Assembly: GCA_020137815.1 (NCBI GenBank)
Contig: CM035355.1
Coordinates: 5,084,001 to 5,148,000, forward strand
Source: Hormiphora californensis
Taxonomy: Eukaryota; Animalia; Ctenophora
Reading direction: 5' to 3'
Length of the DNA stretch: 64,000 nt
The translations under genes were made by a program, and so were the position numbers. Of this stretch, positions 21,001 through 25,801 are shown piece after piece. Under the pieces are notes generated by a model. It searched no databases and had not been told where the DNA came from. It saw nothing but the letters and a program-made list of their open reading frames with translations. The first letter of the stretch is position 1, and each line of letters opens with the position of its first letter.

Positions 21001-24000
21001 TAAGGTGGTATCGGGTGTTACAGGTACCAGGGGGTCCGTCCCATTCAATAGCACCTGCACCTGGGAAGACAGAGGGGGAGGGTTAGGTGGTATCGGGTGT
21101 TACAGGTACCAGGGGGTCCGTCCCATTCAATAGCACCTGCACCTGGGAAAATGGAGGGGGTCAGAGGTTAGGTCTAGGGGCCTTCTTCAATCTTGTCTCA
21201 TCTTCTCTGATGTACACGTACGTACGTAGACCATGGTCTCATTTCACTGTCCTATTCTAAATGACTTTACAGTCCATAGACCCATGATTGTCTGTGCGAA
21301 ACTTTGCACTTGGTTGTGTGTTCACATGAGATCACTACGCTGCACATCATCATTAAATGAGGGACAGGAATAGAATGGGGACAAAGATAGAGAGATAGAG
21401 AGATGGATATGGAGAAAGAGAAAGAGAGATAGAGAGAGAATAAAGGAAAATAATGAGAATTATCAGGAAGGCTTTTACTGATGATTTGTTAAATCGAATG
21501 TTGAGACCCAGGGCGTGAAAGTCATGCACACGTCACAACAAAGTGATATCATATGATAATAATAACCGGTAGTACCACTACTAGTCGCACTAGTGTTAGT
21601 GGTACTAAACCGCTAGTTACCATGGTTACACACAGCCCCATGGATACAATAGTAACCATGGTAACTGCAAGATCAAGTTACCATGGTAACATGACTCACC
21701 ATTGCACTGACTCCAACAGTAGCCCTTCTGGCACCCATAGTAACAGAGGTTTCCCTCGTTACAAAGCCAATCCCTGGAGTTAGTAAACAGTCTGTTGCAT
21801 GTGTCGTACTGGAACGCGGCACAACCTGACATCGGGGAATAGGGGAATGTGAGGGGAGGATTTTTGATTCAGAGGAATCGGGGTGAGATGAGGGGAGGGT
21901 GCAGTGTTAGATTCAGAGGAAGATTTGTTTAGCAGTGCAGACTCTTGTCCACTGTACAAAATTCGATGAAACATGAAACAAAGAAGAACTTAACTAGTCT
22001 GTGTTAGGAAAGGAAAAATAATCATAATACTTACATGCCAAGAGAGCGAGAACAACAAAAACCTTCATATTTTCAACAAATGTCATGTTTTTCTGTTCCA
22101 CTTCAAGAGTTTATAATACGGAGAGAGATTCTAAACCATTTAGCACTTTCACACGATCCTTTTGTCTTTTTGTGGCACTATAATTAGTTTCTACCGCGTC
22201 CAATCTGAGCTTTCATTGTCATACTATGTACAAAACTGTTTTCTCTCCTATTTTATTCTCCAGGTCCATCCCCTATTCAGTTTTCCACAACCCACCCACC
22301 CACACCCTGACCCATCCCCCACATCCGGCCCCAACTCTCTAACGTTTTCTTTTCATCCAGGTACCCTGTATTTGAGGGCAAACAACTCGGTGGACCATTA
22401 CGAGTGGTTGTCCTGTGTGAAGAGAGCTTGTAATTCCTGTAAAGACAAATTAACACGGTAAGAAAACAATCGAATATTTGAAAACTATGTAGAAATTATT
22501 ATAACAACACCAAGATGTAAAGAAAAAGATTTGAAAGATTTTATAAACAATCAGCATCACAAAAAAGCTATATTATAATTCGGAGATCAGCACATTATCC
22601 CAATCGACTTGCTAACTCCATATACCCACCCATTACAGTTACCACCCGGGTGCAATGTTGTACAACAAGTGGACGTGTTGCGGCAGTAAGAATCCCTCTC
22701 ACGAACTGGATGGATGTCACCCTGCAACGTGTGACAATCTCCCCGATATTGATATCTTTAGGGAGTTAGAGAGGTACGTGTAGATCATTTTAGGATTCGG
22801 GCTGTTAGGATTCGGCAGATCAAGTACGTGATTGTTAAACCGCTGCCGTACACCATGTTGCTTGCATTTTGCTTGCATGGGGTCTGAGCTAGTCAAAACT
22901 ATATTGTCCTACCAACCCGATGCTTCAATTGGTAATCCAATAAAAAACCGTTATGTTTTTCTGAAAAAGAACCATCTCCAGGTTTTCTCATCCATCCCAT
23001 CTATTTCCCAGGCTCTACCAGCTGCTGTATAACGGTCTACCAAAACTTGAAGCGCATGCTGAGTTCCTGGGTAAAAGTGAGAGGGAGTTGGATCGGAAGT
23101 GTCTGGCTTCTCTCCAACAACTAATGCCAATAATTCACGGTGAGTAGGGGTAACCATGGTTATTGGTTACCATGGTAACTCATGCCAATAATTCACGGTG
23201 AGTCATTCACAGTGGGACAAATTCCATTTGATGAAGAAATAGCTGGTTCAAACTCACTTAGGGCTGTAACTTCAAAGGGGAGAGAGAGTAGAGAGGGGAA
23301 GCAGGGTGAGAAATTTGGAGTACCATCACAGGGAGCTACGTCGACGTTCCATCCTCCAATCCTCATACACCAAATTCTCCTCAGATTTCGAGAGAGACAC
23401 CCTGTAATTATTAGTACCAGGTCCATGCAACACTTTACTGTCCGGTATTTTAGAAGGCGCAGGAGCCACCCTTCTCCTTCTTGACCGCCGCTTATTTCCT
23501 ACAATACAACACCGGCATATGATAACAACGGTTACCATGGTAACCAGTATCATGGTAACCATGGTAACCACTTCCCCACCGTGTAGTGGTGGTTGTAACC
23601 AGTTTCTTGGATCGGCGTGTCTGCCCCAAGTGGTTAACTTCCAATAACTTTCATCCATCATCCTCTCCAAAGGAATTCTAAAAAGGGGCATCACGGGAGT
23701 GGTCTTCCTAGTCGATGTAACACGGGGTACAGGTTTACAAATCTCGGTATCCTGTCCTACAGCCTTCAGGCAAATCTTCCTTGGACACGATGGCAAAAGA
23801 GTTTTCGTCGTGGGGTTGTTCCCGTCATTTGCAGTAAAAGTTACACTTTGCCTTTCGTCCGCTGTACCTGTGATAATACCAGTGATGGTGCCAGGTATTT
23901 TGACAGTGAGACCCATAGTGAGACCCTCAGTGAGACCCATCTCATCACAGGGATGGACCTCAAAATCCCTCAACTCCGCACCATCCCACTTCCATTTCCC

Positions 24001-25801: not shown

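Follow-up and report, generated by a model that had tools for sequence, protein, structure and literature searches.

The stretch of DNA analyzed here, referred to as the window, comprises 64,000 nucleotides (nt) of the ctenophore Hormiphora californensis (GenBank assembly GCA_020137815.1, contig CM035355.1, positions 5,084,001 to 5,148,000 of the forward strand). On its minus strand, a stop-free frame running from 24963 to 23326 encodes a 545-amino-acid (aa) protein of the EFF-1/AFF-1 (FF) family of fusexins, which act in cell fusion in nematodes. As the initial annotation of this DNA had proposed, the open reading frame (ORF) lies antisense in an intron of a RasGAP gene; it is contained entirely within 23140-25437, and Pfam matches to RasGAP and BTK in the surrounding exons support the identity of the host. 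The features concerned are the following, in window coordinates.

3191..25801, plus strand: host RasGAP gene with BTK motif, 5' end provisional (AG/GT exons, Pfam).
23140..25437, plus strand: host intron of 2298 nt, the last but one of the RasGAP gene.
23326..24963, minus strand: EFF-AFF family ORF, 545 aa, single coding exon (open frame, Pfam, predicted fold).
24904..24963, minus strand: predicted signal peptide, about aa 1-20 (hydropathy peak 2.3; the other allele carries a +3 in-frame indel).
23569..24903, minus strand: ectodomain, aa 21-465, with domains I-III in a predicted class II fusion fold, and stem (AlphaFold model, VIA).
24553..24585, minus strand: Cys127-Cys137 loop at the predicted domain-II tip, with Trp129 (profile alignment to EFF-1, model, loop table).
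23515..23571, minus strand: predicted transmembrane helix, about aa 465-483 (hydropathy 2.74), partly coded by two palindrome copies.
23329..23505, minus strand: cytoplasmic tail with three cysteines followed by a basic stop-transfer stretch; C-terminal motif EDW ... RRxSS-hydrophobic, common to the clade.
24973..24989, minus strand: predicted splice acceptor, 10 nt 5' of the ATG (acceptor matrix score 12.3).

The product is predicted from hydropathy to have a type I membrane topology, like EFF-1 and AFF-1, with hydrophobic segments at aa 1-25 (the putative signal peptide) and aa 461-491 (the transmembrane segment). Its ectodomain contains 18 cysteines and two N-glycosylation sequons. The initial description of a signal peptide, cysteine-rich ectodomain, transmembrane segment and tail is confirmed, with signal peptide and transmembrane segment as predicted from hydropathy. 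A conserved pattern of ectodomain cysteines is a feature of the FF family; 13 of the 18 align with cysteines of Caenorhabditis elegans AFF-1 (G5EGL9), to which the protein shows 24% identity over 268 aa in BLASTP (E 1e-13). The protein retains the N-x-D-x-x-K-L-G-W stretch and, in the stem, the W/NP-x-x-W motif, together with the core cysteines and the entire predicted three-domain fold.

Family membership was confirmed with hidden Markov models: Pfam EFF-AFF (PF14884) matched with E 4e-14 and 52.5 bits against a cut-off of 25, and it was the sole family matched at E up to 1, a range in which neither HAP2-GCS1 nor viral class II families appeared. The ectodomain (aa 21-465) was modeled with AlphaFold from a 30-sequence alignment, yielding a mean predicted local distance difference test (pLDDT) value of 73.7, a predicted template modeling score of 0.57 and a weak stem. 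In Foldseek, EFF-1 ranked first (E 7.5e-23, template modeling [TM] score 0.63), followed by the Gc proteins of bunyaviruses and of Atlas virus (best viral E 1.1e-15), with HAP2 far lower. VIA-align gave the same order, with Z 23.9 for EFF-1 (4ojd; root mean square deviation 4.8, 381 residues aligned), 18.5 for Atlas-virus Gc as the best viral structure, and 13.3 for HAP2 at rank 15. The model thus points to the class II three-domain fold of C. elegans EFF-1 (4OJC/4OJD/4OJE/4CYL), in agreement with the initial assignment. Since nematode AFF-1 was part of the folding alignment, a nematode-free profile search of the PDB provides the more independent test: a profile of seven proteins of the clade of the Hormiphora protein, from which nematode rows were excluded, had EFF-1 as its sole PDB match (E 3e-29). 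A single-sequence PDB search with the Hormiphora protein missed EFF-1, and a word-indexed protein search, which has low sensitivity, returned nothing for this protein or for alignment A2, the Owenia protein matching only itself. When a Bolinopsis relative was used for an Atlas search, the class II proteins that came up did not exceed the search bar and are to be taken as leads only.

The full HMMER scan produced 20 matches, 19 of which carry EFF-AFF; the remaining one, a scallop tenascin-like protein (P0017), was a fibronectin false match without this domain and was dropped from all alignments. Look-up covered 19 of the 20 matches (P0019 was left out) and yielded nine named clusters: three from Bolinopsis microptera, two from Pleurobrachia bachei, Caenorhabditis AFF-1, Pristionchus, Owenia and the scallop false match. 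Ctenophores therefore possess a multi-gene FF family, with at least three genes in Bolinopsis (XP_063682153.1, XP_063692208.1 and XP_063681866.1) and two in Pleurobrachia. In a tree of 20 rows, the sister group of the Hormiphora protein (94/93, not starred) was a clade with 99/98 support that includes two Bolinopsis genes, among them XP_063682153.1, designated 'cell fusion protein aff-1-like' by an automatic RefSeq label; a second branch contained the remaining Bolinopsis gene together with the two from Pleurobrachia. Approximately unbiased (AU) tests, on groups defined after inspection of the tree, rejected a grouping of the Hormiphora protein with the nematode proteins (p 0.002), a grouping with Pleurobrachia P0006 (p 0.001), and a single clade of all Bolinopsis genes with the close unnamed rows (p 0.0002). 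When the tail was compared with those of 13 FF proteins, 4 matched at no more than 8 of 1000 shuffles, every one of them a member of the sister clade. Taken together, tree, AU tests and tail similarity argue for several old FF lineages in ctenophores.

The closest comparison is with the Bolinopsis protein XP_063682153.1 (P0023), which matches over its full length (26% identity over 636 columns, E 2e-43), carries EFF-AFF, a Trp in the tip loop and the same C-terminal motif, and belongs to the sister clade; the Hormiphora protein differs in its long branch and in its length, which is less by 88 aa, domain II and the tail both carrying deletions. The Pleurobrachia proteins P0006 (EukProt P002964) and P0011 (EukProt P003250) are likewise EFF-AFF members, P0006 also with a Trp in the tip loop, but fall in the other branch, and as orthology with P0006 is rejected by the AU test, the Hormiphora gene is probably not an orthologue of either. 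From the nematode proteins it is set apart by its position outside their clade and by a tail unrelated to those of EFF-1 and AFF-1. Within the window, tblastn with eight FF proteins found no second FF copy; contig depth over the ORF in run X1 was 55-63, like the flanks, which is compatible with one copy, depth not being a copy number. On ENA contigs of 35 kb to 1.4 Mb, the relatives each appear as one uninterrupted full-length protein, which suggests that coding introns are absent there too, although P0006 has insertions that may be read-through introns.

The ORF is under purifying selection. Five DNA runs, taken from two samples of which the 2019 one may be the source of the window, gave contigs that cover it. 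These were considered through the best 40 matches per listing (with 76 and 43 further ones), of which those outside the ORF (13 and 3) were dropped before substitutions were counted. Among the matches listed, 54 distinct allelic substitutions were found, 39 synonymous and 15 non-synonymous, with 0 stops and 0 altered cysteines; the ratio of non-synonymous to synonymous polymorphism (pN/pS) is 0.12 (binomial p 1e-13, transition bias uncorrected). Constraint is strongest at aa 1-290, with 24 synonymous to 6 non-synonymous changes. The indels listed, a +12 and an adjacent +1/+2 pair, both preserve the frame; indel matches at 23545-23557, with depths in the thousands, were attributed to further copies of a palindrome in the genome and discounted.

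This palindrome of 14 bp occurs in 16 copies at 1 mismatch or fewer between 19694 and 63752 of the window, against 0.01 expected, and resembles the RFX X-box. Three copies lie within the ORF (23531-23544, 23555-23568 and 24371-24384), the first two of which code for the Val-Thr-Met-Val-Thr repeats of the transmembrane helix. Read contigs stack on it at depths in the thousands, and traces of it are present in P0011 and P0005 as well.

The 5' flank of the ORF indicates how its transcript may be processed. With a matrix built from 18 host acceptors, the AG located 10 nt upstream of the ATG scored highest among the 73 AG sites in the flank and reached the 99.9th percentile of 4715 minus-strand AGs. 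Because this acceptor lies between the ATG at 24963 and an alternative in-frame ATG at 25005, which would extend the protein to 559 aa, the start was fixed at 24963. A strong acceptor directly before the ATG suggests a trans-spliced leader or a 5' untranslated region (UTR) exon, and trans-spliced leaders occur commonly in Hormiphora (PMC8527503). The term 'intronless' applied to the gene initially hence holds for the coding region only, as the acceptor points to a spliced 5' leader.

The initial annotation had read the single exon as a sign of retroposition or of viral or mobile capture. The coding region is indeed intronless amid RasGAP introns of 128-4287 nt, and no canonical polyadenylation signal occurs in the 186 nt between stop and host exon, the nearest AATAAA being at 22257. 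The class II fold predicted for the protein is common to bunyavirus Gc, and according to one published model EFF-1 goes back to a virus captured long ago (PMC9259645). Yet the sequence relatives of the protein are animal FF proteins. Atlas virus Gc (7A4A), phlebo- and bunyavirus Gc and HAP2/GCS1 share the predicted fold class (Z 18.5-13) but only 8-14% identity, the viral folds scoring below EFF-1, and predicted viral structures reached TM scores of at most 0.55 against the model, with 9-14% identity. No viral sequence relatives and no polyprotein, Gn partner, gag or pol context were found for the ORF, nor any flanking long terminal or inverted repeats, target-site duplications or a poly(A) tract after it, so that the initial statement on the absence of terminal repeats and pol remnants stands. 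Confirmation failed for all 7 pattern matches in IMG/VR, which gave no viral locus, and for all 136 matches in JGI metagenomes. The low pN/pS and lack of stops among the matches listed speak against a pseudogene as well as against recent capture, as does the host-type acceptor against the latter. The multi-gene family is old, and nested genes are frequent in Hormiphora, with 2357 in 1654 hosts (PMC8527503); further long single frames of 401 aa (Ig), 429 aa (ankyrin) and 1040 aa (VWC-like) occur in the window. Nesting and a single coding exon are ordinary for ctenophores. Recent capture of a viral or retroelement envelope, or a recent retrocopy or pseudogene, is therefore largely refuted, and we regard it as the most improbable of the readings considered; the FF genes as a whole may nevertheless derive from an ancient virus, or the clade of the Hormiphora gene may have been founded by an old retroposition.

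The loop between Cys127 and Cys137 corresponds to the cd loop by alignment to EFF-1 and lies between two strands in the model. The cd loop is the fusion loop of viral class II proteins and is acidic in EFF-1 (PMC4050280, PMC8784728, PMC12236693), where 3 of 6 residues are acidic (PMC4050280, PMC8784728). In the Hormiphora protein it reads Leu-Trp-Pro-Gly-Gly-Glu, with a Trp and 1 acidic residue, so the acidic loop of the EFF-1 subtype is absent; its interface hydropathy sum is 0.08 versus 4.75 for EFF-1. An aromatic residue was found in 14 of 19 FF loops and more than one acidic residue in none of them, which marks the acidic tip as a trait of EFF-1, an outlier, and not of the family. Viral class II proteins and HAP2 likewise have an apolar, aromatic domain-II tip loop. 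The Trp tip was considered as a mark of one-sided fusion, a notion weakened by the 14 of 19 aromatic loops and by two bilateral fusogens: AFF-1 lacks a charged tip (PMC12236693) and acts bilaterally (PMC6504885), and archaeal Fsx1 is bilateral with an uncharged loop (PMC9259645). As both act bilaterally without an acidic tip, bilateral FF-type fusion is preferred for the Hormiphora protein. It is rather improbable that, in an ancient and expanded ctenophore FF family of at least three lineages, the Trp-tipped clade of the Hormiphora gene joins neurites into the syncytial nerve net and enables injured animals to merge, perhaps one-sidedly through insertion of the aromatic loop in the manner of viral class II proteins.

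We consider it likely, by analogy with characterized members, that this intact and constrained FF gene specifies a class II protein that fuses membranes of the animal's own cells by the bilateral FF-type mechanism, with the tip contacting lipid. As deduced from EFF-1 and AFF-1, a spliced-leader or UTR-spliced mRNA would give rise to a plasma-membrane protein, which would be required on both cells and would trimerize. Lipid would be contacted by the Trp-bearing loop at the domain-II tip, and domain III and the stem would fold back into a hairpin, drawing the bilayers together. The conserved tail, with its RRxS phospho-type motif and hydrophobic last residue, may govern surface exposure; we take these motifs to resemble kinase/14-3-3 and PDZ-binding motifs. 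In EFF-1, hypodermal fusion does not require such 14-3-3 sites (PMC4723337). The cells that fuse may be those of the nerve net, through their neurites, of muscle or of wound edges.

Several observations weigh against this assignment of fusogenic function. The Hormiphora protein forms a long branch of 1.7 changes per site, with a best identity of 26-30% and an unusual composition, and its Pfam score is the weakest among the FF proteins scanned (52.5 bits versus 69-455). Cysteines 108, 275, 276, 339 and 393 are private to it in alignment A1. Residues 291-465, covering domain III and the stem, are less constrained, with 9 synonymous to 7 non-synonymous changes; domain III and stem are also poorly modeled, pLDDT values falling below 50 at model residues 321-326, 396-421 and 438-445. 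Finally, the presence of nematode AFF-1 in the folding alignment means that the fold match to EFF-1 is not fully independent.

A functional FF protein that does not merge two cells, acting instead in self-fusion, endocytic scission, phagosome sealing or adhesion, is worth weighing, if unlikely. Auto-fusion, endocytic and phagocytic roles of EFF-1 and of AFF-1 have been documented in C. elegans (PMC6504885), the Hormiphora protein has diverged furthest within its clade, as seen also in its shortened domain II and the private cysteines, and some of the several paralogues may differ in role. The retained core cysteines, family motifs and predicted three-domain fold argue for merging of cells, and, as the fusion mechanism would be the same, this alternative differs from fusion between cells mainly in the site of action. 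Very unlikely is a gamete fusogen that replaces HAP2 in the Hormiphora lineage. Single compact genes are often germ-line genes, which counts in its favor, and a role in gamete fusion has been considered possible for divergent fusexins in the absence of HAP2 (PMC6504885). On the other hand, every FF protein tested is somatic (PMC6504885), and the predicted fold is nearer to EFF-1 than to HAP2 by the Z values given above.

Bilateral fusion of the animal's own cells remains our preferred reading, and the main value of the finding is that the expanded ctenophore FF family offers a way to approach the syncytial nerve net by experiment. The ctenophore with a published FF record is reportedly Pleurobrachia. 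FF homologues in a ctenophore are already in print (PMC6504885, PMC4723337), as noted initially and in keeping with the Bolinopsis and Pleurobrachia members found here; with the family long in print and a relative labeled in RefSeq, the surprise is limited. The paper on the syncytial nerve net closes on the question of whether its neurons remain connected after dividing or extend outward and fuse (PMC7617566), and a 2024 preprint calls ctenophore fusion mechanisms unknown (PMC11565835). Fusogen terms occur only in the reference lists of PMC7617566, PMC10730927 and PMC9816575; PMC12407032 treats EFF-1 for nematodes in the passages covered (12 of 15), and the passages searched in PMC13524379 and PMC12700828 contain nothing bearing on ctenophore FF genes. 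We found no paper tying these genes to the syncytial nerve net, in a search of main texts that covered few subscription papers, and none testing the Bolinopsis 'aff-1-like' protein XP_063682153.1. The constrained EFF/AFF family supplies named candidates for single-cell look-up and cultured-cell tests, and it bears on the age of somatic fusexins in animals.

The host gene was assembled from 17 exons picked by eye (3191-25801, plus strand), every one of which is AG/GT-bounded and which together form one open frame of 710 aa. A further candidate exon, 2103-2192, is out of frame with the rest, for which reason the 5' end of the gene is provisional. Of eight exons scanned singly against Pfam, three matched RasGAP (E 2.5e-14, 8e-5 and 0.059), one matched BTK (E 1e-4) and four gave no match. 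We take the gene to be of the GAP1/RASA2-3 type from its architecture; putative C2 and PH labels for host exons follow the GAP1 architecture. Reading by eye showed an intron-exon junction repeated in tandem over about 2 kb between 10700 and 12690 (plus strand), the copies comprising the acceptor and the opening bases of the RasGAP exon at 12675. Junctions are also duplicated over shorter lengths at 23119/23177 (repeat search) and at 43440-43540 and 47080-47290 (read by eye). RNA run X8 matched only a RasGAP exon and the palindrome. One of its contigs, at 22640-22692, joins the preceding RasGAP exon to this exon in a transcript-like manner, but 7 of its 53 bases are mismatched, and the run may therefore derive from a species other than its label.

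Elsewhere in the window, a single frame at 41049-42254 (plus strand) codes for a type I membrane protein of 401 aa that has an Ig V-set domain; an acceptor-like AG lies 4 nt upstream of the ATG of this frame. The 1040-aa single frame at 60312-63434 (minus strand), with VWC/pacifastin-like cysteine repeats and a Ser/Gly-rich linker, is probably one large exon of a longer gene, and the 429-aa ankyrin-repeat frame at 55426-56715 (minus strand) looks like the initial large exon of a gene that extends to about 54850. A 167-aa frame at 53013-53516 (minus strand) has no convincing Pfam match (E 0.1). By eye, exons of a protein kinase A-type catalytic subunit were recognized at 28140-32290 (minus strand; activation-loop motif near 28690-28740), long inverted repeats of foldback or miniature inverted-repeat transposable element appearance at 9180-10650 and 34600-39950, and a multi-exon gene apparently encoding several PDZ domains at 43100-52680 (plus strand).
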